Source of the DNA: Armatimonadia bacterium
GTDB taxonomy: Bacteria; Armatimonadota; Zipacnadia; Zipacnadales; UBA11051
DNA: 44,373 bases
Reading direction: 5' to 3'
Assembly: GCA_039683575.1 (NCBI GenBank)
Contig: JBDKRC010000345.1
Location: forward strand, 1 to 44,373
Both the position numbers and the translations under genes were made by a program. Within the stretch, counting starts at the first letter, position 1. Each line of letters starts with the position of its first letter. Of this stretch, positions 3,058 to 23,132 are shown one piece after another. The notes under the pieces are model-generated. The model was not told the DNA's origin. It did no database searches and saw only the letters and a program-made list of their open reading frames with translations.

Positions 3058-4239
3058 CTATATCTCATTCAGCAGGGCCTTCAGTTTCAGTTCCGGCAAC
3101 CCCCGCTCCCATTCCCCAATGATCTTCGCCGCCTCGGCCTCACCCATGATCGCCCCCGCCTTCCCCGTCTTGATCAGGGCCAGTTGCGCCGTAAGCTGCT
3201 CACCCCACCCCTGGTACTTCGCCGCTGCCTCTCTGTCGTCAGGCACCAGCGCCAACGCCTTCCTGACTTCCTCCTGCTTCTGCTGCAAGTCCCACCCGGC
3301 CAACGATGGGTCAGTGAACTGGAACGTCACCAACTCCTGCAGCAGGCCCTCCGCCCGTCGTCGCAGGTCCGCCTGCTCCTCCGAGTTCTTCGTCCCCGCA
3401 TAGTCAAAGAACACGAACCGGAAGTCGCGCAACATCGGCTTGAGCTCGAAAACCGTATCTATCCCATAGCTGGCGACGGTAAACCCGCACTTGCTGGCCT
3501 GGCTGCCGGGGAAGAGCACCGAGCACGGCCCCGCAGCGGTCCCGTGGGCTGAGGTATAGCCCGCGTCATAAATGCTGTCGTAATACAGCAGCCACTCCTC
3601 TTTTGCCAGGTCAAGCTCGGCCTTCTCGCCCTGCTTGAGGTCCCGCACCGGCGTCATGACGTGCCGCTCGCCGTTGCTGATGAACGCCGAGGGGTAGCAG
3701 CGCAGGCTCAGCTTCAGTGACTTGATCTCCTGTTTCGGCTCAAGCAGCGCCTGGCAGTAGAGCGCGTCATCCCCCGCCTTGCCCACGAACCGCACCCGCA
3801 CCACCGCTTGACGGGTATCGAATACGAAGTCCACATACCCGCGGTCGCCCAGGCTCCGCCCGGTCACCGAGTGCGCGAACGTCCGTCCGATGTCTTCCCC
3901 ATTGATCACGAGCTGAAAGAATCCGCCGTGGTACCAGTTGGCCGCAGTGGGCTCCGGCATCCCGATATAGCCCTCGCCCGGAATCGCCGCCGCCTCGTCC
4001 TTCGGATCGCGCGCCACCACATACCGCAGCCCAAACTGGCGCGCACCGGTATCAAGCGTGACGGTATGCTCAACGCCCTTGAGCCCGACTGTGTGCGCCG
4101 GCGCGCCCGGGCCAATGGTTCGATCCTGCAGGCCTCGGTCACCCACCAGCACCTGCGGGGCCGCCTCCTCAGCCGTTGCCGCGCCCAGCAGCGCCAGCAG
4201 CATCACACCAACCATCGCGATCGTCAGGTGCCGCATCAT
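3058..4239 (-). CDS. Secreted hypothetical protein with helical C-terminus
   Basis: ATG at 4239 preceded by GGAGG; Sec signal peptide (MMRHLTIAMVG...ATA); last gene of a three-gene minus-strand run. Confidence 0.8.
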   Translation of the reverse strand: MMRHLTIAMVGVMLLALLGAATAEEAAPQVLVGDRGLQDRTIGPGAPAHTVGLKGVEHTVTLDTGARQFGLRYVVARDPKDEAAAIPGEGYIGMPEPTAANWYHGGFFQLVINGEDIGRTFAHSVTGRSLGDRGYVDFVFDTRQAVVRVRFVGKAGDDALYCQALLEPKQEIKSLKLSLRCYPSAFISNGERHVMTPVRDLKQGEKAELDLAKEEWLLYYDSIYDAGYTSAHGTAAGPCSVLFPGSQASKCGFTVASYGIDTVFELKPMLRDFRFVFFDYAGTKNSEEQADLRRRAEGLLQELVTFQFTDPSLAGWDLQQKQEEVRKALALVPDDREAAAKYQGWGEQLTAQLALIKTGKAGAIMGEAEAAKIIGEWERGLPELKLKALLNEI

Positions 4240-10595: not shown

Positions 10596-10684
10596 TAAAG
10601 ATGCCGTTGTTGCATAGTTATGTTTGACTCACGTCGTCTGGCGGGGGGGCGGCTGATCAGCACTTGGCCAGGGAGAGCCGGTAC

Positions 10685-11743
10685 ATGACCAAAGCCATGT
10701 TCTATCTCATGCTCGTGGTTGCCGTTGCGGCAGCACTGCCGGCTAGCGCCGCAACGCTGCTTGCCGACCATTTCGGCGTCAACCCGACCGTCGTATACTC
10801 GGATTTCGACTATCAGGTCGAGACCTCCCCTGGTGTCTGGGAGACACAGACCTATGGGGCCTACGCCTTCGACCCCAATACCTGGGTTCCCACCAACAAC
10901 ACCGCGACTGCCGACTACCAGGTCAATGACTGGTATGGCGCCTGGGATCCCAACGGCGGCCTCGGCAACGTGACATCCCCTGATCTGCCCTACGCCAATG
11001 CCACCTCGCCCTCAGGTGACGAGCCGTACGATACCGAAGCCTACTATTTCGATGACGACGAAGACAACCTGTACTTTGTCGCCGTCATCGGCTTCCCCTC
11101 TCCCGCCGACGGCATCTACACCGAGAGTCGGTTGGAGAACTACCCCGTTGTTCAGGGAGACCTGGCCATCGACGTAGTCGGACACGGCAACGGGCAAACC
11201 GATGGCTGGGGCTTCCAGTACAGCTATGGCGTCGATCTTACCAATGAGATCCGTCCTGATTACGCTGACAACGACGTAGAAGCACTGCGATCCGAGACCG
11301 TCGGTAACGCCTTCTACGAGACCTCCGACGGCTGGTATATCGGAACGCCCAATGGTGCGGTCAACCCCGTCGCCGACGGCGCGACCTCTGACGCCTACAG
11401 CAACTTCGACCCCACGTACAGTGGCCTTACGCCGACAGGATATGTCACCACCAACTGGTATGAACTTCCCGTCACAGACAGCCTTGGCAATCCTCAACTC
11501 GAAAACCAGTGGAGCACGTACGTAATCGAGGTAACCATACCGCGCGAACTGTTCGGCACGTTGGATCCCTACCAGGAAATCCGCTTCCACTGGCTTGCCG
11601 GTTGCCGCAATGACGGCAACGACGGCCAGGCCTACCTGACTGGTAACGGTGTCACGCCCGAGCCGACCACAACAGCGTTGATGCTGCTCGGTGTCGTTCC
11701 CCTCGGCTCGTGGCTGCGCAAGCGTCGCCAGTCGCAAAGCTAG
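10685..11743 (+). CDS. PEP-CTERM sorting-domain surface protein
   Basis: Signal peptide; acidic D/Y/N/T-rich body; C-terminal TPEPTTTALMLLGVVPLGSWLRKRR (PEP motif + TM helix + basic tail). Confidence 0.9.
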   Translation: MTKAMFYLMLVVAVAAALPASAATLLADHFGVNPTVVYSDFDYQVETSPGVWETQTYGAYAFDPNTWVPTNNTATADYQVNDWYGAWDPNGGLGNVTSPDLPYANATSPSGDEPYDTEAYYFDDDEDNLYFVAVIGFPSPADGIYTESRLENYPVVQGDLAIDVVGHGNGQTDGWGFQYSYGVDLTNEIRPDYADNDVEALRSETVGNAFYETSDGWYIGTPNGAVNPVADGATSDAYSNFDPTYSGLTPTGYVTTNWYELPVTDSLGNPQLENQWSTYVIEVTIPRELFGTLDPYQEIRFHWLAGCRNDGNDGQAYLTGNGVTPEPTTTALMLLGVVPLGSWLRKRRQSQS

Positions 11744-11775
11744 CTCCCCTCACCTCTCCAAAACCGCAACACACG

Positions 11776-11804
11776 AAAAGCGCCTGAAGATCAGGCGCTT
11801 TTTT
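11776..11804 (+). terminator. Intrinsic terminator
   Basis: AAAAGCGCCTGA-AGA-TCAGGCGCTTTTTT just after the PEP-CTERM stop. Confidence 0.85.
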
Positions 11805-11956
11805 GCTGCGTTCCACTCACCGCTCCTTGCCCCGAGTTAGCCTGCGGGCTTACCCCTTGAGTGAAACCCTCCTCAATCTTGCTTCTACTTGAACTTCATG
11901 ATCATCGATGGCGTCCAGAGATAACGTACCATTTTGGTTGACCATGCAATGGAGGA

Positions 11957-14770
11957 ATGGGCATGCGAATCGTTGCATTGCTGATGGTTTGTGTTTCGCT
12001 GTCGGTAGCACCGGCAGTTTTCGCTCTGGGGACCGGGGCCAGCCTCGGAGATACCGTCTGGTATGATACCAATGCCAATGGAGTCATGGACACTGGCGAA
12101 GCCGGCATTCCCGGCGTGACCGTGACTGCCGACCGCTACGACTCCAATGGGGCGCTGGTCTACCACAGCAGCAAGATCACCGACGGCAACGGGTATTACC
12201 TGTTTCCCACCTTGCTGGCAGGGACCTACCATGTGACCACCAGCGTCACCGGTCTCTCCCCCACTTACGACCTCGATGGCGTCGGAACCCCCAGCTATGC
12301 CGTTGCCACTCTGGCTACTGGTCAGGCCCGTCGCGATGTCGACTTCGGCTATGTCGCCGGCACGCTCGGCGACACGGTCTGGGCTGACGCCAATGCCAAC
12401 GGCGTGCAGGACAGTGGTGAAACTGGCCTCGCAGGGGTCTCCGTCAGCCTCTACGACGGCAGCAACACTCTCCTTGCCACCACCACAACCAACAGCTCCG
12501 GCTGGTACAGCTTCAATAGCCTGGCCAGCGGCGTATACACCGTCAAGGTTGACCCGGCTACCCTCTCCGGCGGCTGGGTCGTTCCTACCTACGATCTCGA
12601 CGGCCTTGACAGCGCCAACTCCGCAACCGGCTCGCTCGGCCCCGGTGAGACAAGGCTGGACTTCGACTTCGGCTACACCAAGACCGGCTCTCTTGGCGAC
12701 TACGTGTGGTTCGATGCCGACCAGGACGGCGTGCAGGACGCGGGCGAGCAACCGATTCCTCACGTCACCCTCATCTTGCTTGATAGCAGCAACCAGCAGT
12801 TGGCCACCACCGCAACCGACGACAACGGCCTGTACACGTTCGGCGACCTGCTGGCAGGTACATACAAGGTCCAGGTTGACGCCGCCACCCTCCCCCCGCG
12901 CGTGACGCAGACCTATGACCTTGACGGCATCGGAACGGCCAACATAGCCACTGCCACCCTGGCCCTCGGCCAGAACCGCACCGACGTGGACTTCGGCTAT
13001 TACCAGGCGCCGGAGGCCCCCGGTCTCTCCATCACCAAAGAGGCCAATGTTACTGACATCGTGCCGGGACAGTCTGTAACATACACCTACACGATCACCA
13101 CCACTGGCGGCCAGACCCTCTCCTACATAGTCGCCACAGATGATGCAGCCACCCCCAAGTACACCCCGGACGACTTCATCGTGGGCCAGCTCGCCAGCCT
13201 CGCAGCCGGGCAGAGCGTGAGCTTCACCGCCACCAAGAGCATCGCCGTGGACAACGTCGTGACGGTCAACGGCACCAACTACGATGGCGGCTGGGAGACT
13301 ACCGAAGTCCTGCCCAATGGCGACGTGCGCTTCACCTACGTCCAGAGTCTGACCGTCACCGACAATACCTATGGCGCCACTGCCTCGCCTGGCTGGCCCA
13401 GTGGCCACAAGTTCGGCGACCTGACCGGCAGCGACAAGGCCCAGTTCCTCTTCAAGAACGCCGCCGGCACAACCGTGATGCAGTTCTACCTCGACTACAT
13501 CTCCGCCTCCACGGCGTTCCCCTCCGGCTACGGCACCCTCGGCGCCACCGGCGGAGACGGCAGCATGGTGGTAGGCAGCGCCTCGAACATCGCCAGCTAC
13601 ACAACCTCGATGACGCTCAACATGAACCAGTCGCCGGCCTACTACGTGTACACCGTAAACTCGCCGGTGAACGACCCCAACTGGAACTACTACAGCATGT
13701 ACACGATGGTGATCAAGGCAGCCGCCTTCGGCACCTCGGGCTTCGGCAGCGCCGAAGTTGTGGACCAGCACAACTCCCCCTCCAAGCTCGGTGTAAATGC
13801 CATGGACCCCAAACCCGTGGACAGTGCTGTAACCAACACTGTGGTGGTCACCGGAACCGCGGCCAACGGCACCGCGATGACCGCCAGCGCCACCGAGACC
13901 GTCTGGATCTGGACCCACGGCCGCGCGTCGCTCGCTGGCAACATCTGGGCCGACCTCAACGAAAACGGCAGTTCCGACGGGTATGACTGGCCGATGGGCA
14001 GCGTCACCGTCACCCTCGTAAATGTAACAACCGGTGCCACAGTCGGTACTGCAGTGACCGATGCCGGGGGCAACTACACCTTCGCACAACTCTATCCTGG
14101 CACTTACCGCGCCACAGTCACAACCAGCACGCTGCCGGCTTACTACACGAAGCCGACCTACGATCTCGACGGCATCAGCACTGCCAATACGGCCGTAGCG
14201 ACCATCGTTGGTGATACCGGCGCCATCACCAACGTTAACTTCGGCTACAACAGGACCGCCGCGGCCCCGTTCACAACCTATACGCCAGACCGCTGGGGCG
14301 GTACCAGCACCCCCAGGAACGCGGGGTGGATGCTGGATACCCACTTCGCCACCCTCTATCCTTCCGGTCTTGTCGTCGGTGGCGGCTACACAGTGACCTT
14401 TGCCTCCGCTGCCGCGGTGGACACGTACCTGCCGCGTACGGGCACACCTGCCATGCTGACCCAGAACTGGGTCAACCCGACGAGTACCCCATCCAATGAG
14501 CTGGTTGGGCAGACTACGGCGCTGAAGCTCAACGTAGACTACTCCAGTGCCGGGCTGCTCAAGTCTGGCCTCGGCAGCAAAGCCCTGCTCAAGGGTGAGC
14601 TCATGGGCTGGACTGTTGACCAGGTCTTGGCGGCTGCTCAGGCGACCCTCGGCGGGAACAGATCCGGCCTGCCCAGCACTGTCACCCTGAGTGACCTCAA
14701 CAGCATCATCAAGTCAATCAATGGCAACTACCTGGACGGGACCAAGAACAACGGCTATCTGAGCCAGTAG
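11957..14770 (+). CDS. Secreted SdrD B-like repeat protein, paralog 1 (4 repeats, split DUF11-like domain, conserved C-terminal domain)
   Basis: Signal peptide; repeated SLGD.VW.D.N.NG.QD.GE.GI ... TYDLDG ... DVDFGY units. Confidence 0.85.
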   Translation: MGMRIVALLMVCVSLSVAPAVFALGTGASLGDTVWYDTNANGVMDTGEAGIPGVTVTADRYDSNGALVYHSSKITDGNGYYLFPTLLAGTYHVTTSVTGLSPTYDLDGVGTPSYAVATLATGQARRDVDFGYVAGTLGDTVWADANANGVQDSGETGLAGVSVSLYDGSNTLLATTTTNSSGWYSFNSLASGVYTVKVDPATLSGGWVVPTYDLDGLDSANSATGSLGPGETRLDFDFGYTKTGSLGDYVWFDADQDGVQDAGEQPIPHVTLILLDSSNQQLATTATDDNGLYTFGDLLAGTYKVQVDAATLPPRVTQTYDLDGIGTANIATATLALGQNRTDVDFGYYQAPEAPGLSITKEANVTDIVPGQSVTYTYTITTTGGQTLSYIVATDDAATPKYTPDDFIVGQLASLAAGQSVSFTATKSIAVDNVVTVNGTNYDGGWETTEVLPNGDVRFTYVQSLTVTDNTYGATASPGWPSGHKFGDLTGSDKAQFLFKNAAGTTVMQFYLDYISASTAFPSGYGTLGATGGDGSMVVGSASNIASYTTSMTLNMNQSPAYYVYTVNSPVNDPNWNYYSMYTMVIKAAAFGTSGFGSAEVVDQHNSPSKLGVNAMDPKPVDSAVTNTVVVTGTAANGTAMTASATETVWIWTHGRASLAGNIWADLNENGSSDGYDWPMGSVTVTLVNVTTGATVGTAVTDAGGNYTFAQLYPGTYRATVTTSTLPAYYTKPTYDLDGISTANTAVATIVGDTGAITNVNFGYNRTAAAPFTTYTPDRWGGTSTPRNAGWMLDTHFATLYPSGLVVGGGYTVTFASAAAVDTYLPRTGTPAMLTQNWVNPTSTPSNELVGQTTALKLNVDYSSAGLLKSGLGSKALLKGELMGWTVDQVLAAAQATLGGNRSGLPSTVTLSDLNSIIKSINGNYLDGTKNNGYLSQ

Positions 14771-14791
14771 CCTCTATGGTTTTGGCAAAAT

Positions 14792-14834
14792 GACAACAGC
14801 GGCGCGCCTGAGCAGGCGCGCCGCTGCTGTTGTC
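14792..14834 (+). terminator. GC-rich terminator-like hairpin after paralog 1
   Basis: CAGCGGCGCGCCTG-AG-CAGGCGCGCCGCTG followed by CTGTTGT; weak U tract. Confidence 0.6.
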
Positions 14835-14900
14835 GCGAGGCTCGGCCGGCGGCACCTCAAGAAAGGCTCACCGGATCATGAGACATTCTTGCGGAAATAG

Positions 14901-14929
14901 TTGACATGTAGAAGAAGGCATGATAGAGT
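14901..14929 (+). promoter_or_regulatory. sigma70 promoter of paralog 2
   Basis: TTGACA-17 nt-TAGAGT; conserved in front of paralogs 3 and 4. Confidence 0.8.
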
Positions 14930-14936
14930 TCTTCCC

Positions 14937-15215
14937 AATGGAAGTGCCTGGCCTGGGTACTTCCGTTTTCGCATCTACTGGTTGATGGTCTGAACGCAGC
15001 AGTAATAAGCGTTTTACGTCCGACGCACTTAGTAGCCGCCATTCATCACAGCAACGATCACAGCTATGCCGAAGCGTGTGACTTCGGATTCATTGCAGGG
15101 CAAGTGCCCGCAAACCTGGGTACTTGCCCTTTTGTGTTTCCTGGTTGGATGTTGGTCGAGCGCCGAACGCAGCCGTAGAGAAGCCTCAGTCGAACACCTG
15201 TGGGAGGGTATTGAT
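14937..15215 (+). ncRNA. Candidate structured cis-regulatory 5' leader, copy 1
   Basis: Hairpin H1 14940-14964 + T tract; ATCACAGC direct repeat; hairpin 15069-15087; terminator-like H2 15097-15133. Conserved in three copies. Confidence 0.6.
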
Positions 15216-16775
15216 ATGAACAGACTACTGACATTGATTGTCTTGGTCTCACTGGCTGTAGCTCCGGGGGCCTTCGCTCTTGGTACAGCCGCCAGTCTTG
15301 GGGACACGGTTTGGTACGACACCAACAACAATGGTGTGCAGGACGATGGTGAGCCGGGGATCGCCGGCGTCGTCGTCACCGCTCAACGGTATGACGCAAA
15401 CGGCGTGCTCAGGTACAACGCGACGAGGACCACCAACTCGACCGGGTACTACCTGTTCCAGAGCCTGCTTGCCGGTACGTATCGCGTGACAACCAATGTC
15501 ACCAACCTCGATCAGACCTATGATCTCGACGGCACCAGCACGCCAAACTATGCGGTCGCCACGCTGGCCACCAGCCAGGCCCGCCGCGACGTCGATTTCG
15601 GCTATGTCGGCGGCTCCCTTGGCGACTACGTCTGGCTCGACGCGGACCGCGATGGTGAGCAGGACGCCGCAGAGCAGGGCATTTCCGGCGTCACCCTCAG
15701 TCTTCTCGATGGCACGGGCGCAACCCTGGCCACCACCGTAACCAACGCCTCCGGCTTGTACACCTTCAGCGGCCTCAAGGCAGGCTCGTACACCGTCCAG
15801 GTGGACTTCTCAACCATACCTGCCGACCTTGAGCCCTCCTACGACCTCGATGGCATCTCAACTGCCAACATCGCTACAGCTTCACTGACCCGTGCGCAAA
15901 ACCGCACCGATGTTGACTTCGGCTACAAGCCGCCAGTGCTCGGTTCCATTGGCGACTACGTGTGGCTCGACGTCAACGGCGATGGTATCCAGGACGCCAC
16001 CGAGAGCGGCATCCCCAACGTGACGATGCAGCTCTACAGCAACGATGTCCTCCTCGCAACCACGGCTACCAACGGTTCGGGGCTGTATCTCTTCAGCAAC
16101 CTGCGCGTCGGCACCTACACCGTCCAGGTGGTGGCCAGCACCCTTCCCGCCAACGTCGCCCCCACCTACGACCTCGATGGCATCGCCACCGCCCATGTAG
16201 CGACTGCCAGCCTCGGCTACGGCGAAGACCGGCGCGACGTGGACTTCGGCTACTGGGTCCCGGACACTCGGCATTACATGACAAACAGTAACGGCGGCTG
16301 GGGCTCCAATCCCACCGGCGACAATCCCGGCACGCTGCTCCACACCAACTTCCCGATCGTCTACCCCAACGGCATGGTGGTCGGCAGCCTCCATTACATC
16401 AGGTTCGACAGCGCGCAGGAGATCACCGACGCCCTCCCGCTTGGCGGCGCCGCTGGCACGCTCATCCGGGACTATGATCCTCCGACCGCAACCGGCACCT
16501 CGGCTGGCCAGTTCGCCGGCCAAGTGGTAGGCAATCGCCTCTCCCTGGACTTCTCCAACGCCGGAGTCACCCGCTACGGTCTCGGGCGTCTGAAGATCCA
16601 GAGCGGGACCTTCCAGGGCATGACAGTAACGGACTTCGTCCAACTCTGCGAGGAGATATTGGGTGGCAAGAGCGACAACCTACAGTACACCCTGCCTGAC
16701 CTCTCCAACACCGCAGCCCAGATCAACCTGAACTACGACAAGGGAGCGGTCGACAACGGCTTCCTCGCCCCGTAG
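15216..16775 (+). CDS. Secreted SdrD B-like repeat protein, paralog 2 (3 repeats + C-terminal domain)
   Basis: ATG 15216 after GGGAGG; signal peptide homologous to the other paralogs; three SdrD-B-like units. Confidence 0.85.
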   Translation: MNRLLTLIVLVSLAVAPGAFALGTAASLGDTVWYDTNNNGVQDDGEPGIAGVVVTAQRYDANGVLRYNATRTTNSTGYYLFQSLLAGTYRVTTNVTNLDQTYDLDGTSTPNYAVATLATSQARRDVDFGYVGGSLGDYVWLDADRDGEQDAAEQGISGVTLSLLDGTGATLATTVTNASGLYTFSGLKAGSYTVQVDFSTIPADLEPSYDLDGISTANIATASLTRAQNRTDVDFGYKPPVLGSIGDYVWLDVNGDGIQDATESGIPNVTMQLYSNDVLLATTATNGSGLYLFSNLRVGTYTVQVVASTLPANVAPTYDLDGIATAHVATASLGYGEDRRDVDFGYWVPDTRHYMTNSNGGWGSNPTGDNPGTLLHTNFPIVYPNGMVVGSLHYIRFDSAQEITDALPLGGAAGTLIRDYDPPTATGTSAGQFAGQVVGNRLSLDFSNAGVTRYGLGRLKIQSGTFQGMTVTDFVQLCEEILGGKSDNLQYTLPDLSNTAAQINLNYDKGAVDNGFLAP

Positions 16776-16806
16776 GACCCCGCTAACAGTTGGCCTGAAT
16801 AGCGAT

Positions 16807-16847
16807 ACAGGGGATGCTCCAAACGGAGCATCCCCTGTCTGTTTCTT
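16807..16847 (+). terminator. Intrinsic terminator after paralog 2
   Basis: ACAGGGGATGCTCC-AAAC-GGAGCATCCCCTGT then CTGTTTCTT; the same stem recurs after paralogs 3 and 4. Confidence 0.8.
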
Positions 16848-16933
16848 GCCCTCATCCATGTAGCGCACCGCCGTTTCCCGTTTTCGTCTCAATCCCGGCG
16901 AAAGCGGTGTTGCGCAAGCCTTGAAGACATCGG

Positions 16934-16962
16934 TTGACAAGAAGAAGAAGCAGTAGTAGAGT
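16934..16962 (+). promoter_or_regulatory. sigma70 promoter of paralog 3
   Basis: TTGACA-17 nt-TAGAGT. Confidence 0.8.
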
Positions 16963-16970
16963 ACATGACG

Positions 16971-17252
16971 ATGGAAGTGCCCGGCCTGGGTACTTCCATT
17001 TTTGCGTTAACTGGTTGATGGTCTGGACGCAGCAGTTGTACGCGTTTTACGTCCGACGCACTTAGCAGCCGCCATTCATCACAGCAACGATCACAGCCAA
17101 GCCAAAGCGCGTGACTTCGGTGTCATTGCAGGGCAAGTGCCCGTAAGCCTGGGTACTTGCCCTTTTGTGTTTTCTGGTTGGATGTTGGTTCAGCGCCGAA
17201 CGCAGTCGTAGTCAGAAAAATGCCTCAGTCGAACACTTGGGAGGGTATTCGT
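16971..17252 (+). ncRNA. Candidate structured cis-regulatory 5' leader, copy 2
   Basis: H1 ATGGAAGTGCCC/GGGTACTTCCAT + TTTT (16971-17003); H2 AGGGCAAGTGCCC/GGGTACTTGCCCT + TTT (17130-17166). Confidence 0.6.
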
Positions 17253-18812
17253 ATGAGCAGACTACTGGTACCGATTGTCTTGGTCTCACTGGCTGTAGCT
17301 CCGGCGGCCTTCGCTCTTGGTACAGCCGCCAGTCTTGGGGACACGGTTTGGTACGACACCAACAATAATGGTGTGCAGGACGCTGGTGAGCCGGGGATCG
17401 CTGGCGTCGTCGTCACCGCTCAGCGGTACGACGCAAACGGCGTGCTCAGGTACAACGCGACGCGGACCACCAACTCGACCGGGTACTACCTCTTTCAAAG
17501 CCTGCTTGCCGGTACGTATCGCGTGACAACCAATGTCACCAACCTCGATCCAACCTACGATCTCGATGGCCTGGGCACGCCAAACCTCGCCGTCTCCACG
17601 CTGGCCACCAGCCAGGCCCGCCGCGACGTCGATTTCGGCTACGTCGGTGGCTCCCTTGGCGACTACGTCTGGCTCGACGCGGACCGCGATGGTGAGCAGG
17701 ATGCCGCGGAGCAGGGCATTTCCGGCGTTACGCTAGCTCTCCTGAATGGCGCGGGCGCTACCCTCGCTACCACGGTAACCAACGCCTCCGGCTGGTATGC
17801 CTTCAGTGGCCTCAAGGCCGGCTCCTATACCGTACAGGTGGACTTCGCAACCATACCGGTCGGCTTGGAGCCCTCCTACGACCTCGATGGCATCTCAACT
17901 GCCAACATCGCCACGGCTTCACTGAGCCTTGCCCAAAACCGCACCGATGTCGACTTCGGCTACAAGCCGCCGCTTCTGGGTTCCATCGGCGACTACGTGT
18001 GGCTCGACGTCAATGGCGACGGTGTCCAGGATGCCACCGAGAGCGGCATTCCCAACGTGACGATGCAGCTCTACAGCAACGACGTCCTCCTCGCAACCAC
18101 GGCAACCGATGGCTCCGGGCTTTACCTCTTCAGCAACCTGCATGCCGGCACCTACACCGTCCAGGTGGTTGCCAGTACTCTTGCGGCGAACCTCGTACAG
18201 ACCTACGACCTCGACGGCATCGCCACCGCCCACGTGGCGACCGCCAGCCTCGCCTCCGGCGAGGACCGGCGCGACGTGGACTTCGGCTACTGGGTCCCAG
18301 ACACCCGGCACTACGTGACCAACAGCAACGGCGGCTGGGGTGGCGAGCCAACTGGCGACAACCCCGGCACGCTTCTCCACAACAACTTCGCCGCCGTCTA
18401 CCCCAACGGCATGGTGGTGGGCAGCCTCCATTACATGAGGTTCGACAGCGCGCAGGAGATCACCGACGCCCTGCCGCTGGGCGGCACCGCTGGGACGCTC
18501 ATCCAGGACTATGATCCGCCCACCGCAACCGGCACCTCGGCTGGCCAGTTCGCCGGCCAAGTAGTAGGCAATCGCCTCTCCTTGGACTTCTCCAACGCCG
18601 GCGTCACCTGCTACGGTCTCGGCCGTCTGAAGATCCAGAGCGGGACCTTCCAGGGCATGACAGTGACGGAGTTCGTCCAGCTCTGCGAGGACATATTGGG
18701 TGGCAAGAGCGACAATCTACAGTACTCGCTGCCTGACCTCTCCAACACCGCAGCCCAGATCAACCTGAACTACGACAAGGGCGCGGTGGACCAGGGCTTC
18801 CTCGGCCCGTAG
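17253..18812 (+). CDS. Secreted SdrD B-like repeat protein, paralog 3 (recent duplicate of paralog 2)
   Basis: ATG 17253 after GGGAGG; same length (1560 nt) as paralog 2 and colinear with it. Confidence 0.85.
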   Translation: MSRLLVPIVLVSLAVAPAAFALGTAASLGDTVWYDTNNNGVQDAGEPGIAGVVVTAQRYDANGVLRYNATRTTNSTGYYLFQSLLAGTYRVTTNVTNLDPTYDLDGLGTPNLAVSTLATSQARRDVDFGYVGGSLGDYVWLDADRDGEQDAAEQGISGVTLALLNGAGATLATTVTNASGWYAFSGLKAGSYTVQVDFATIPVGLEPSYDLDGISTANIATASLSLAQNRTDVDFGYKPPLLGSIGDYVWLDVNGDGVQDATESGIPNVTMQLYSNDVLLATTATDGSGLYLFSNLHAGTYTVQVVASTLAANLVQTYDLDGIATAHVATASLASGEDRRDVDFGYWVPDTRHYVTNSNGGWGGEPTGDNPGTLLHNNFAAVYPNGMVVGSLHYMRFDSAQEITDALPLGGTAGTLIQDYDPPTATGTSAGQFAGQVVGNRLSLDFSNAGVTCYGLGRLKIQSGTFQGMTVTEFVQLCEDILGGKSDNLQYSLPDLSNTAAQINLNYDKGAVDQGFLGP

Positions 18813-18841
18813 AACCCCGCTAACAGATTGTCTGAATAACG

Positions 18842-18883
18842 AGACAGGGGATGCTCCAACGGAGCATCCCCTGTCTGTTTCTT
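18842..18883 (+). terminator. Intrinsic terminator after paralog 3
   Basis: AGACAGGGGATGCTCC-AAC-GGAGCATCCCCTGTCT then GTTTCTT. Confidence 0.8.
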
Positions 18884-18970
18884 GCCGCCTTCCGTACGAC
18901 CGTACCCTCCCTTGGGGCCGTCGTCTTTACCGGCTCTATAGCTACCGTTGAGAAAGACTTGAAAAAACGA

Positions 18971-18999
18971 TTGACAAGAAGAAGAAGTAGCAGTACACT
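18971..18999 (+). promoter_or_regulatory. sigma70 promoter of paralog 4
   Basis: TTGACA-17 nt-TACACT. Confidence 0.8.
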
Positions 19000-19009
19000 T
19001 CGACACTGT

Positions 19010-19298
19010 GGAAGTGCCTTGCCTGGGTGCTTCTCTTTTTGCATCTACTGGTTAGTGGTCCCGATGCACCCGCAGACACGTTGCTTGACAGTCTCAGCTT
19101 CATTCGCGAGACCCTCATCACCGCAACCATCGCAGCCATACCGAGGTTACGTCTGCCTCGGTTCCAAAGCAAGGTAAGTGCCTGGGAAATGGGTACTTGC
19201 CTTTTTTTTACGACTGGTGGTCGTCGAGTTGAGCATTTCTTGATGTAACCCAGAGTAAAAGTAGATTAGGCGTACCAGACATGGGAGGGAAACAGAAA
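19010..19298 (+). ncRNA. Candidate structured cis-regulatory 5' leader, copy 3 (diverged)
   Basis: H1 19010-19040; ACCGAGG/CCTCGGT hairpin 19140-19162; H2 AAGGTAAGTGCCT/GGGTACTTGCCTT with T8 run (19171-19209). Confidence 0.6.
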
Positions 19299-21215
19299 AT
19301 GCGCAGATTAGTCATGTTGATGGTTTTGGTTTCACTGGCGGTTGCCCCGGCAGTCTTCGCACTCGGAACTGCCGCCAGCCTCGGCGACACCGTATGGCTC
19401 GAGACGGTTAGTGTCAATGGCGTCCAGGACGCCGGCGAACCCGGCATCCCCAACGTGGTCGTTACCGCCAAGCGCTACGATGCCGCTGGTAATCTCGTCT
19501 ACCGCCAAACCCAGACAACCAACTCCTCAGGCTACTACCTCTTCCCGGTGCTCAGCGCCGGGACGTATACGGTGAGCACCAACGTCACCGAGTACGATCC
19601 CACCTACGATCTCGACGGTGTCGTGACGCCCAACACCACTCAGGCTGTCCTTGCCACGGGCCAGGCCAAGCGCGACGTTGATTTCGGGTACAAGCTCCCG
19701 CCGGTCGGTTCCATCGGCGACTACGTCTGGCTGGATGCCGATCGCGATACCGAACAGGATGCGACTGAAAGTGGTATCCCCAACGTCACCGTTAACCTCC
19801 TCGGCGCTGATGGTGCCGTACTGGCTACCACCAAGACCGATGCTGCAGGCTGGTACACCTTCACTGGCCTCAGGGCCGGCGCCTACAGCGTTCAGGTAGA
19901 TTACTCCACAATCGCGCCCGCTGACCTCGAGCTCTCCTACGACCTCGATGGTATTGGCACCGCGAACATAGCCGCTGCCCCGCTGGCTGCCGGCGAGAAC
20001 CGCACCGACCTCGACTTTGGCTACAAGCCTGTCCTCCTCGGTTCCATCGGCGACTACGTCTGGCTGGATGCTGATCGCGATACCGAACAGGATGCCGATG
20101 AATATGGCATCCCGAATGTCACGGTTAGCCTCCTCGACAGCGCCGGCGCAGTCATCACGACGACGACCACTGACGCCAACGGCCTATACACCTTTGGCGG
20201 CCTGAAGGCCGGCGACTACAGCGTGCAGGTTGACTACTCCACAATCTCGCCTGCCGACCTCGAACTCTCCTACGATCTCGACGGTATCGGCACCGCCAAC
20301 ATAGCCGCCGCCTCGCTGGCTGCCGGCGAAAACCGCACCGACGTGGACTTCGGCTACAAGCCTGTCCTCCTCGGCTCCATCGGCGACTACGTCTGGTACG
20401 ATGCCAATGGTGACACCCAGCAGGACGCTGGCGAGGTCGGGCTCCCCGATGTCTCTGTCGAGCTCTACCAGGGCAGTGACCTGATCGGGACCACCACCAC
20501 CAACGCCGCTGGCCTCTATGTCTTCGGCTGCCTCAAGGCCGGCACCTACACCGTCAAGATAGTGGCCAGCACGCTGCCGTCAGACCTGACGATCCAGACC
20601 TATGATCTCGACGGCGTGAACACCGCCAACCAGGCCACCGCCAGCCTCGCCGCCGGCGAAGACCGCCGCGATGTGGACTTCGGCTACACCAAGGGAACCG
20701 TCGACGAGCGGCCCTTCACCACCTACACCCAGGGCGGCTGGGGCGCCAAGCCCAATGGCAACAATCCAGGGGTCACGCTTCACGCGAACTTCGACACGGT
20801 GTATCCTGACGGGCTTCGCCTCGGCAGCAACCACTGGCTGCAGTTCGACACCGCGCAGGAGATCACAGACTTCCTGCCGCAGGGCGGCACCGCCGGCACG
20901 CTCATCAACAACTATGATCCGCCCAAGAAGCGCACCGAAGCCGGCGTCTTCGCCGGGCAGGTACTCGCTCTTCGCCTCAACGTGGACTTCTCCGCCGCAG
21001 GGCTCACGCGCACGGGGATCGGGTCGCTGGTGATCCAGAAGGGGCCACTCGCCGGGACGTCGGTATCCGACTTCCTCGGCTTGTGCGAGCAGGTCCTGGG
21101 AGGCGACAGCGACGATCTGGAGTACTCCTTGGCCGACCTCAACGACGCCGCAACCTCGATCAATGAGAACTACGACAACGGCACCACGGACAACGGCTTC
21201 CTGGCTGCCAAGTAA
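19299..21215 (+). CDS. Secreted SdrD B-like repeat protein, paralog 4 (4 repeats + C-terminal domain)
   Basis: ATG 19299 after GGGAGG; internal 333-nt repeat period (19707, 20040, 20373). Confidence 0.85.
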   Translation: MRRLVMLMVLVSLAVAPAVFALGTAASLGDTVWLETVSVNGVQDAGEPGIPNVVVTAKRYDAAGNLVYRQTQTTNSSGYYLFPVLSAGTYTVSTNVTEYDPTYDLDGVVTPNTTQAVLATGQAKRDVDFGYKLPPVGSIGDYVWLDADRDTEQDATESGIPNVTVNLLGADGAVLATTKTDAAGWYTFTGLRAGAYSVQVDYSTIAPADLELSYDLDGIGTANIAAAPLAAGENRTDLDFGYKPVLLGSIGDYVWLDADRDTEQDADEYGIPNVTVSLLDSAGAVITTTTTDANGLYTFGGLKAGDYSVQVDYSTISPADLELSYDLDGIGTANIAAASLAAGENRTDVDFGYKPVLLGSIGDYVWYDANGDTQQDAGEVGLPDVSVELYQGSDLIGTTTTNAAGLYVFGCLKAGTYTVKIVASTLPSDLTIQTYDLDGVNTANQATASLAAGEDRRDVDFGYTKGTVDERPFTTYTQGGWGAKPNGNNPGVTLHANFDTVYPDGLRLGSNHWLQFDTAQEITDFLPQGGTAGTLINNYDPPKKRTEAGVFAGQVLALRLNVDFSAAGLTRTGIGSLVIQKGPLAGTSVSDFLGLCEQVLGGDSDDLEYSLADLNDAATSINENYDNGTTDNGFLAAK

Positions 21216-21243
21216 CAACCGCTAACAGTTGGCCTGGATAAGA

Positions 21244-21279
21244 AAACAGGGGATGCTCCATCTGGAGCATCCCCTGTTT
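21244..21279 (+). terminator. Terminator after paralog 4, possibly bidirectional with aspS
   Basis: AAACAGGGGATGCTCCA-TC-TGGAGCATCCCCTGTTT. Confidence 0.8.
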
Positions 21280-21341
21280 GCATCTCGCCAGTTCCCTCTG
21301 GCCGGTACGGCTTTCCGTTTTGTGTTTTCTGTTCCCGCCGT

Positions 21342-23132
21342 CTACCCTTGCGGCGGCAGATCCAGCTTGATGTGCAGCTCCCGCAGTTGCTTCACATCCA
21401 CCGCGCCCGGCGCATCTGCCATCAGGTCCACCGCCCGCTGCGTCTTCGGGAAGGCGATGACCTCGCGGATGTTGTCCTCCCCGCACAGCCGTGTAATCAG
21501 CCGGTCAAACCCCAGCGCGATCCCGCCGTGCGGCGGCGTCCCATAGTCGAACGCATTCAGCAGGAACCCGAATTTGCGGTCTGCCTCTTCCGGCGTGATG
21601 CCGATGAGATCAAACACCTTCTGCTGAATATCCCGGCGATGCACGCGGATGCTTCCCGACGCGCTCTCGCTGCCGTTGACCACACAGTCATAGCTGAGCG
21701 CCCGCACCTTCCCCGGGTCCGTGTCCAGCAGGTCCCAGTCCTCATGGTGAGGCATGCAGAACGGGTGATGCTCGGCCTCCCAGCGCTTCTCCTCCTCATT
21801 CCAGGCGATCATCGGGAAGTCCAGCACCCATAGCGGGGCGAACACGTTGTCACTAATCAGACCCATGCGCTCCGCCATCTCGCGCCTGATCCAGTCCAGG
21901 CTCTCGGCCACAATCGCCGGCTGGTCGGCTACGATCAGCAGCAGGTCGCCGGCCTTGGCCGCAAACCGCGACTTCAGCTCTGCCCCCTGCTCCGGCGTGA
22001 AGAACTTGGCCACGGGCGATTCGATGCCCTCATCAGTAACCCGCATCCACACCAGCCCCGCGGCCTTATGCTGCTTGGCAAACTCCGTCAGCTTGTCAAG
22101 CTGCGCCCGCGCATAGTCCCCGCAGCCCGTCGCGTTGATCCCCTTTACCTGCCCGCCCCGTGCCGCGACATCCTTGAAGACCTTGAACTCAACCTGCGGC
22201 GCCATGTCGGTGAGGTCCACGAACTTCATCTCAAAGCGCGTGTCCGGCTTGTCGGTGCCATAGTCCCGCATTGCCTCGGCATGACTCATCCGCGGGAAGG
22301 GCAGCGGCATCTCGTAGCCGATGACCTCTTTGAAGATCCGCGCGGTAAGCCGCTCGACCACATCAAAAACTTCCTCGCGGTCCACGAACGCGAATTCGAT
22401 GTCAATCTGCGTGAATTCCGGCTGGCGATCCGCCCGCGGGTCCTCATCGCGCAGACACTTGGCAATCTGGAAGTACCGGTCAATCCCGCCGACCATCAGA
22501 AGCTGCTTCAGAAGCTGCGGCGACTGCGGCAGTGCGTAGAAGTTGCCCGGGCTCACACGGCTCGGCACGAGGTAGTCCCGCGCGCCCTCCGGCGTCGGCT
22601 TGAACAGTAGCGGCGTTTCGACCTCCCAGAACCCTTCTTCGGTCAGGAACTGCCGTGTCACCTGGTAAGCCCGGTGCCGGATCTCCAGGTTCCGCTGCAT
22701 GCGCTCGCTGCGCAGGTCAATGTAGCGATACTTCATGCGCAAGAGCTCGTCAGTCTCGGTGCGGTCGGCAATCGAGAACGGCGGCGTCTTCGCGACGTTG
22801 AGCACCTCGAGCCGCTCCACACCCAGTTCCACGGCTCCGGTGGCCATCTCTGTATTCTCCGTCCCCTCGGGCCGCCTCCGCACGAGTCCCTCGACGGCGA
22901 TCACATACTCGCTCCGCAGGTCATGCGCACCCTCCATGGCCTCGGGACACACCTCAGGGTCAAACACGACCTGCATCATCCCAGCGCGGTCGCGCAGGTC
23001 CACAAAGATGAGCCCGCCATGATCCCGCCGCCGGTGTACCCAACCATTGAGCACAACCTTCTGCCCGATATGATCCTCGCGCACCTCACCACACCGCAGC
23101 GTGCGCTTCATGAACATCTGGTTTTCCATCAT
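21342..23132 (-). CDS. aspS: Aspartate--tRNA ligase, probably non-discriminating (Asp/Asn)
   Basis: GWVHRRRDHGGLIFVDLRD, TPEGARDYLVPSR, YALPQSPQ, RQPEFTQID, PPHGGIALGFDR, IREVIAFPK motifs. Start is 23132 or 23129, after GGAAAGGA. Confidence 0.97.
   Translation of the reverse strand: MMENQMFMKRTLRCGEVREDHIGQKVVLNGWVHRRRDHGGLIFVDLRDRAGMMQVVFDPEVCPEAMEGAHDLRSEYVIAVEGLVRRRPEGTENTEMATGAVELGVERLEVLNVAKTPPFSIADRTETDELLRMKYRYIDLRSERMQRNLEIRHRAYQVTRQFLTEEGFWEVETPLLFKPTPEGARDYLVPSRVSPGNFYALPQSPQLLKQLLMVGGIDRYFQIAKCLRDEDPRADRQPEFTQIDIEFAFVDREEVFDVVERLTARIFKEVIGYEMPLPFPRMSHAEAMRDYGTDKPDTRFEMKFVDLTDMAPQVEFKVFKDVAARGGQVKGINATGCGDYARAQLDKLTEFAKQHKAAGLVWMRVTDEGIESPVAKFFTPEQGAELKSRFAAKAGDLLLIVADQPAIVAESLDWIRREMAERMGLISDNVFAPLWVLDFPMIAWNEEEKRWEAEHHPFCMPHHEDWDLLDTDPGKVRALSYDCVVNGSESASGSIRVHRRDIQQKVFDLIGITPEEADRKFGFLLNAFDYGTPPHGGIALGFDRLITRLCGEDNIREVIAFPKTQRAVDLMADAPGAVDVKQLRELHIKLDLPPQG

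Follow-up and report, generated by a model that had tools for sequence, protein, structure and literature searches.

How is a gene expressed when its near-consensus promoter seems to fire straight into two successive transcription stops? This question is raised by a tandem gene array in a 44,373-nucleotide (nt) stretch of DNA from an uncultured Armatimonadia bacterium (assembly GCA_039683575.1, contig JBDKRC010000345.1; the whole stretch is referred to below as the window), in which three genes encoding adhesin-like, putatively secreted SdrD_B-repeat proteins are each preceded by a leader with two terminator-like hairpins, named H1 and H2. An earlier note on this DNA had proposed that such a promoter would be silent unless read-through were regulated by a ligand, an RNA-binding protein or a NusG-paralog antiterminator.

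The leader RNA is conserved and uncatalogued, and its layout is more than a local duplication. It is best regarded as a lineage-specific cis-acting RNA, not a ligand-binding riboswitch, which most likely throttles the genes behind it. A two-step intrinsic-termination attenuator, in which H1 doubles as a protective 5' end and read-through is gated by a putative sequence-specific factor, is proposed tentatively, as a mechanism with somewhat less than an even chance of being right.

Layout of the leaders

The window contains four tandem genes (paralogs 1 to 4) encoding proteins with SdrD_B repeats and a common C-terminal domain of ~170 amino acids (aa), the N-termini of which were judged by eye to be signal-peptide-like. 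Paralogs 2, 3 and 4 each constitute a transcription unit of their own, with a promoter, an untranslated leader of 280–295 nt, the coding sequence (CDS) and a terminator (Table 1); their leaders are numbered here as copies 1, 2 and 3. The region upstream of paralog 1 (start at 11957) differs and is devoid of the promoter, H1 and H2 elements.

The layout described in the earlier note was recovered in all three copies. Each begins with a TTGACA-17-TAnAnT promoter that carries AGAAGAAG in its spacer, followed by the H1 core (GGAAGTGCC..GGGT(A/G)CTTC) and its T tract, the core starting exactly 10 nt past the -10 box, where about 10 nt had been given. The related H2 hairpin follows, also with a T tract, and the H1-to-H2 spacings of 159, 159 and 163 nt were reproduced. 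Between the end of H2 and the ATG, where about 85 nt had been given, 86, 90 and 96 nt were measured, and the ATGs lie one base off the frame that had been implied. A promoter scan of positions 11500–21500 returned five promoter-like sites, compared with 2.2 ± 1.6 in shuffled sequences, while a terminator scan listed H1 of copies 2 and 3 and H2 of all three copies; H1 of copy 1, whose T run comprises only four T, is absent from that list but folds. In the 6.2-Mb assembly the exact H1 and H2 motifs occur three times each on the forward strand, all within the window, and never on the reverse strand, and a control pattern gave no match, which excludes chance. The H1 and H2 units of copies 1 and 2, each taken with its tail, are paralogous.

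A hand count over the seven copies with a mapped -10 box put GGAAGT/CGAAGT at a distance of 10 nt from this box in four of them and of 11 nt in the other three. On this basis, the RNA is predicted to start 0–5 nt ahead of the H1 stem, the +1 position being predicted from the -10 box only. Between the two hairpins of the long leaders, a small middle hairpin has a counterpart at the same place in seven of eight cases, with differing sequences, copy 2 being the one that does not fold. Compared with the window, the T run past H2 of copy 3 (19201–19209) has an extra T in one RNA sequencing run and lacks one in two other RNA runs as well as in the DNA run, so the length of the U tract behind this hairpin varies among strains.

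Occurrence beyond the window

According to the earlier note, a lack of homologues or covariation outside the local duplication would argue against a regulatory RNA; both were found. An unlinked 302-aa paralog in the genome of the window (G000, contig C303) has the same promoter-H1 unit in a short leader devoid of H2, and the outer stem of its H1 differs in sequence yet still pairs. In a sister species (G002), four tandem paralogs are each preceded by TTGACA-17/18-TAnnnT, the hairpin core GGAAGTRCC..GCCTGGGYRCT and 5–8 T, the core lying 11 nt past the -10 box in the three paralogs for which this was measured; the AGAAGAAG spacer motif is not retained there. Metagenome contigs supplied four more copies, three of them near-copies of G002 units and one (L138) distinct. 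The pattern scan behind these copies matched 48 loci, of which seven show TTGAC no more than 60 nt upstream and four the full promoter-H1 layout; the loci outside these four were set aside as ordinary terminators or coding sequence. Two leader types carry H1 only, namely that of contig C303 and that of one sister-species gene (G002_C, with a near-copy in L133), and possess neither H2 nor another promoter before the ATG.

The leader is thereby distributed over two species of one genus and one distinct metagenome lineage. Among 401 genomes of the phylum, the strict pattern of H1 plus T tract is genuine only in G000 (six matches) and G002 (four); five other genomes, with one or two matches each, were attributed to chance, since a control pattern written backwards matched seven genomes. 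An H1 covariance model run against 67 genomes of the order gave ten strong matches, all in G000 or G002, and six weak ones (E 0.016–0.059), judged by eye to be either terminators at gene ends or hairpins upstream of an L10-like gene. Since every copy of H1 and H2 is followed by a T tract and the weak matches are ordinary gene-end terminators of the genus, both leader hairpins look like the organism's own transcription stops. In a BLAST search of 60 relatives the leader matched nothing besides its copies in the window, the strongest match elsewhere covering 19 nt (E 0.038), and a degenerate-motif match on contig C192 of G000 lies within a hydrolase gene and was rejected as chance. None of 14 upstream regions, taken from 41 loci with homologues of the C-terminal domain, has the promoter-H1 layout.

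A scan of the whole window against Rfam release 15 gave no match at or above the gathering score, in agreement with the earlier statement that the leader is unrecognised as a known riboswitch class. Three sub-threshold matches all lie at 14780–14865, outside the leaders, and the leaders of the relatives gave no meaningful match either (the best reached 28.2 bits, where the gathering score is 40).

Conservation and covariation

Copies 1 and 3 are identical at 23 of 28 positions in H1, 22 of 26 in its tail and 26 of 34 in H2. The inter-hairpin spacer (57/110) and the H2 tail (18/44) are less conserved, and 100 of 203 four-fold degenerate codon sites (49%) agree. As H1, its tail and H2 stand above the four-fold sites, these conserved islands are either selected or homogenised by gene conversion, and not simply young. 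Between the G000 and G002 types, identity amounts to 0.80 in H1, 0.40 in H2 and 0.29–0.52 in the rest of the leader, and within the G002 type H1 is 94% identical; across the species groups, the H1-H2 spacer shows an identity of 31–41% and an indel of 61 columns. H1 is therefore conserved in sequence, whereas H2 is conserved as structure only, although in the window copies H2 carries the apical sequence of H1.

A T tract of at least four T stands behind H1 in all 12 copies and a T tract stands behind H2 in all eight long leaders, so that both hairpins have the form of an intrinsic (Rho-independent) terminator, in which a G+C-rich stem-loop is directly followed by a U tract. In the H1 alignment, 96.9% of cells are paired, and pair 21–35 is AU in six sequences, GC in three and GU in three. 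For H2, 92.5% of cells are paired, six of ten pairs have changed on both sides, and none of 500 shuffles reaches the covariation score. RNAalifold predicted 27 pairs for the eight long leaders and recovered both H1 and H2; besides these it gave two short helices, both past H2, and its consensus contains no helix between H1 and H2.

The outer stems of H1 differ yet pair (GGAAGT/ACTTCC, GCGGAAGT/ACTGCCGC, GAGCGAAGT/GCTCTCGCTC). Its loops of 4–6 nt (GGCCU, CUGCCU, UGCC, CAGCCU and similar) contain a conserved GCC that the other half does not mirror. The gap between the stem halves, counted by hand, ranges from 7 to 10 nt, a variability that points to an RNA loop and not to a rigid DNA operator. 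The stem differences, read earlier as G-U wobbles on the plus strand, proved to be G-U-compatible on that strand only, as befits an RNA-type structure.

Upstream reading frames in the sister species

Each of the five long G002-type leaders contains a Shine-Dalgarno (SD) sequence and an upstream open reading frame (uORF) of 24–27 codons, the UAG of which overlaps the first bases of H2. The SD sequence, GAGGGGC, is itself held in a hairpin with an upstream GCCCCUG. The encoded peptide is poorly conserved, whereas start, stop and frame are kept despite a net 9-nt difference in L138 (27 versus 24 codons). The H1-only leader G002_C, like its near-copy L133, also has a 22-codon frame with an SD sequence, with no terminator behind it.

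The leaders of the window lack this module, which corresponds to a 61-column gap in the alignment. The only ATG of copy 1 (15066) lacks an SD sequence and shares the frame of the gene; no such frame exists in copy 2; and in copy 3 an ATG frame of 37 codons, also devoid of an SD sequence, stops within the 5' arm of H2. A leaderless frame running over H1 was also considered and rejected, as ATG or GTG stands 2 nt before GGAAG in eight of 12 copies, AAG or GAGC in the other four, and the frame differs between the species groups; no reading frame over H1 is kept in all copies.

The uORF of the sister species looks like the geometry of a translation-coupled attenuator, in which a ribosome at the uORF stop would cover the 5' arm of the H2 terminator. 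From this comparison of sequences, we read the uORF in the sister species and the H1 apex on H2 in the window as what may be two solutions for gating the same second terminator, and this would lend indirect support to the view that the specific sequence of H1 matters for control.

A two-step attenuator and the evidence against it

The following scheme starts from what is observed, namely the elements, their conservation and covariation, and the read-through of H2 in RNA-library contigs. Transcription would start 7–9 nt past the -10 box, and the first ~30 bases would fold into H1, which with its U tract would form a signal of the intrinsic-terminator type at ~+10 to +45, where a share of polymerases would stop. 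The RNAs that are read through would keep H1 as a base-paired 5' end, possibly shielding them from 5'-end-dependent decay; the presence of an RNase E/G-family gene in G000 makes such protection meaningful. Some 130 nt further on, H2 and its U tract would provide a second stop, 86–96 nt before the start codon. Since H1 is kept in sequence while H2 drifts with compensatory changes, and H2 in this genome bears the H1 apex, we infer a putative sequence-specific factor that would read the apex of H1, and here that of H2 as well, and so set the level of read-through. Control by an RNA-binding protein is plausible, in that the sequence-level conservation of H1 fits it, while the searches found no factor.

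Expression of the array was assessed from contigs of wastewater metatranscriptome libraries, not from mapped reads. The array genes are covered by contigs in small libraries, and three contigs (from three runs of one study), starting at 19078, 19095 and 19142, traverse H2 of copy 3 with its U tract and reach into the CDS. H1 and the first 70–250 nt of all three leaders, which the DNA run covers, are missing from the RNA-library contigs, which can show neither absence nor the starts and ends of RNAs.

Several results weigh against the two-step attenuator. The read-through RNA at H2 of copy 3 means that the hairpins were at most partial stops in that sample, and the U tract of H1 in copy 1 comprises only four U. 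Both the promoter and the +1 position are predictions, gene conversion between the paralogs could inflate the conservation seen within the genome, and the covariation in H1 is thin (25 of 500 shuffles reach its score) because the distribution of the leader is narrow. As H1 abuts the predicted transcript start, there is no room for an upstream sensor or a classical antiterminator; for H2, folding of the nascent RNA up to the hairpin loop gave partners of the 5' arm that differ among the copies, so that no antiterminator is conserved. The candidate regulators fared no better: the NusG family (PF02357) has a single match in G000, a genome that is 96.4% complete, and hence no paralog, in a search whose control was positive in ten of 14 named genomes; CAT_RBD (PF03123) has no match in G000, the control being positive in four of the 14; and no regulator gene lies next to the arrays in either species. 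The search for the ANTAR domain (PF03861) gave no match in G000, but its control was positive in none of the 14 genomes either. CsrA and Rho are present in the genome.

The idea of regulated antitermination advanced in the earlier note has thus survived in part. The two conserved hairpins with U tracts stand, uncatalogued as had been stated, while neither of the specific routes, through a ligand or through a LoaP/UpxY-type NusG paralog, is supported. A more specific version of the attenuator, in which H1 is a factor-gated terminator abutting the promoter, is itself unlikely: an RNA-binding protein would read the apex AAGURCC..GCCUGGGYRCU within the first 40 nt and thereby decide between an abortive RNA of ~40 nt and a stable mRNA with a capped 5' end, and the apex would have been copied to H2 after translation-coupled control was lost, so that one factor would gate both hairpins. 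If true, this version would, together with similar hairpins behind the promoters of efp, infC and rplU, point to an unrecognised and widespread layer of promoter-proximal control.

Alternative explanations

In the chief alternative, the leader would serve mRNA stabilisation with no gating at all, H1 being the 5'-terminal protective stem-loop of a highly expressed mRNA and H2 either an element for processing or stability or a stop that leaks constitutively. This is rather doubtful, although the position of H1 and the apparent expression would suit it: H1 lies 0–5 nt from the predicted +1 in all copies, a geometry to which, according to a section of PMC3997798, 5'-end-dependent decay enzymes are sensitive; the genome has an RNase E/G-family gene; the genes are covered in small metatranscriptome libraries, with H2 read through. 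Moreover, ten of 296 promoter-like sites in G000, among them those of efp, infC and rplU, are followed within 16 nt by a hairpin and a T tract, where random windows predict 0.5 and control patterns gave 0 of 164, 1 of 233 and 0 of 99. The hairpins of efp, rplU and infC have no Rfam family match, and that of efp is not kept as a hairpin with a U tract in five relatives, which counts against a stabilising role. Neither a U tract nor a particular sequence, furthermore, is required of a stabiliser, whereas every one of the 12 H1 copies is followed by a U tract and identity across species amounts to 80% for H1 against 40% for H2. An independent small-RNA gene that spans promoter, H1 and H2 (~200 nt here, ~260 nt in the sister species), with the downstream gene expressed by leakage through the terminator, is improbable. 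Its layout would be apt, as a strong promoter is followed by a 5' hairpin and a strong terminator (with 7–8 U in copy 3 and G002), and the conserved ATC(A/G)CAGC repeat could be a seed or a protein-binding site; yet in the H1-only leaders, which have no other promoter before the ATG, the mRNA must come through H1, no conserved promoter is seen between H2 and the ATG, the RNA-library contigs join the leader to the CDS, and the spacer is poorly conserved.

The sequence conservation of H1 and its fixed distance to the -10 box could also reflect a DNA operator: the inverted repeat AAGTRCC..GGYRCTT at +3 to +30 would be occupied by a dimeric repressor, and the promoter would thereby be blocked. Such an operator is very improbable in view of the half-site spacing, which varies from 7 to 10 bp, the unmirrored GCC of the loop, the outer stem that changes sequence but stays paired, the departures from symmetry that are G-U-compatible on the plus strand only, and the conserved T tract. 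As for a riboswitch or processive antitermination by a NusG paralog, the presence of two terminator-like hairpins behind a strong promoter and the lack of a match to known families are what suggested them, and they now seem scarcely credible. No room exists for an aptamer before H1, the RNAalifold consensus of the eight long leaders has no conserved multi-helix fold between H1 and H2, the spacer diverges as described above, and the genome has a single NusG-family gene. The two-step attenuator accordingly stays the preferred reading, at the tentative level stated at the outset.

Genes and other features of the locus

In the list of open reading frames, paralog 2 begins at an ATG at 15066, in frame through H2 into the gene (15066–15215). 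This start lacks a ribosome-binding site and is AAG in copy 2, and the extended frame is therefore an artefact of gene calling.

The common C-terminal domain (14270–14764, 16248–16772, 18285–18809 and 20700–21206) matches no Pfam family. It is present in three of 67 genomes of the order, all of one genus, and its relatives at 41 loci come from metagenome-assembled genomes of Armatimonadota, Acidobacteriota, Ignavibacteria, Bacteroidota, Verrucomicrobiota and Planctomycetota. Its structure was predicted with a predicted local distance difference test (pLDDT) score of 81 and a predicted template-modelling (pTM) score of 0.83. Comparison of the model with solved structures gave no clear match, Foldseek returning a best E of 1 and VIA-align a best Z of 4.4 (root-mean-square deviation 3.3 over 71 aligned residues), and no fold can be named.

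Directly past the stop of paralog 1 lies a near-perfect palindrome (14793–14830) with 18-nt arms that are 94% complementary and without a T tract, a feature to which the weak sub-threshold Rfam matches of this region (CcsR1, P24) can be attributed. The gene ahead of the array (10664–11743) encodes a PEP-CTERM-like C-terminal sorting signal, as judged by eye and without a match in the family search, and has a canonical terminator of its own at ~11780–11806. In the sister species, the array has ispG and the prolyl-tRNA synthetase gene as neighbours.

Table 1. Positions of the leader elements, genes and related features (window coordinates unless another contig or locus is named)
Feature	Position	Strand	Remarks
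Promoter, copy 1	14901..14929	+	TTGACA, 17-nt spacer with AGAAGAAG, TAGAGT; 10/12 consensus positions
H1, copy 1	14937..14969	+	Stem-loop (core 14940-14964) + G + TTTT (14966-14969); predicted at the very 5' end of the RNA
C-rich block	15040..15065	+	Two ATCACAGC repeats; ATC(A/G)CAGC kept in all long leaders (invariant alignment columns)
Small middle hairpin	15069..15087	+	CCGAAG..CTTCGG; 10 nt before H2 copy 1
H2, copy 1	15097..15140	+	14-pair stem-loop (15097-15130) + TTTTGTGTTT
Ribosome-binding site and ATG, paralog 2	15202..15218	+	GGGAGGG; ATG at 15216
Paralog 2 CDS	15216..16775	+	519 aa; three SdrD_B domains; signal-peptide-like N-terminus (by eye); C-terminal domain ~170 aa
Gene-end terminator hairpin, paralog 2	16807..16838	+	ACAGGGGATGCTCC..; same hairpin behind paralog 3 (18842-18876) and paralog 4 (21246-21277)
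Promoter, copy 2	16934..16962	+	TTGACA-17-TAGAGT; 10/12 consensus positions
H1, copy 2	16970..17003	+	Core 16973-16997, then TTTTT
H2, copy 2	17130..17173	+	14 pairs (17130-17163) + T tract
Paralog 3 CDS	17253..18812	+	519 aa
Promoter, copy 3	18971..18999	+	TTGACA-17-TACACT; 10/12 consensus positions
H1, copy 3	19010..19040	+	Core 19010-19034, then C + TTTTT
H2, copy 3	19171..19209	+	14 pairs (19171-19203) + run of 8 T (19202-19209)
Paralog 4 CDS	19299..21215	+	638 aa; four SdrD_B domains; C-terminal domain as in paralog 2
Promoter-proximal hairpin sites in G000	Contigs C20, C173, C193, C206, C208, C310, C350		L182-L184 for three
G002-type upstream reading frames	L048:1486-1560 and 3322-3396		Also L132, L138, L140

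Comparison with known systems

The element is of modest practical value, being limited to a single genus and a single family of secreted proteins. If the hairpins terminate, the leader would constitute a compact, uncatalogued attenuator in a phylum without studied RNA regulation, and the known systems that it resembles are compared below.

The pyrG leader of Bacillus subtilis is a reiterative-transcription attenuator, in which a homopolymer run at the start can be extended and pair with the 5' arm of the terminator. It shares with the present leader a terminator near the transcript start and control without a separate antiterminator segment, whereas across the 12 copies the 10–11 nt that separate H1 from the -10 box retain no homopolymer run. 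With the ribonucleic antiterminator (RAT) leaders of BglG, SacY and LicT and with ANTAR leaders, the common features are a sequence-conserved hairpin within a terminator and the plausibility of control by an RNA-binding protein. Unlike the BglG/SacY/LicT leaders, however, the present ones have no RNA upstream of H1 for a RAT-like site, and the PF03123 search found no CAT_RBD protein. ANTAR targets consist of two hairpins with hexaloops that have A at position 1 and G at position 4, in contrast to the 4- to 6-nt loops with GCC of H1. The 5'-terminal stem-loops of ompA and papA are reportedly stabilising (Emory, Bouvet and Belasco 1992); H1 is likewise a hairpin within a few bases of the (here predicted) 5' end of an abundant mRNA for envelope or secreted proteins, but it has a conserved U tract and apical sequence that stabilisers do not need.

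In the lambdoid PR'-tR'-Q system, as described in part of PMC7547250, a strong promoter fires into an adjacent terminator and yields a short RNA unless termination is overcome. The likeness lies in a strong promoter firing straight into a terminator just downstream; on the other hand, the array has no phage context, H1 is far closer to the start (~+10 to +45), and AGAAGAAG is not kept in the sister species. With its predicted first stop at a place where no classical antiterminator can act, the leader would be well suited to testing how cells tolerate or gate terminators close to a promoter.

The pyrBI/pyrL and pyrE leaders of E. coli are translation-coupled attenuators. A closely following ribosome, in the account given in a portion of PMC5021804, prevents the formation of the terminator hairpin. 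The window copies differ from this type in having no uORF, no frame over H1 that is kept in all copies and no evident link to pyrimidines. They resemble it in having a terminator hairpin in the leader without a classical antiterminator, and the sister species adds the 24–27-codon uORF with its SD sequence and a UAG on the first bases of H2. The two species provide a natural comparison, the second terminator being accompanied by a small uORF in one and by H1-like sequence in the other.

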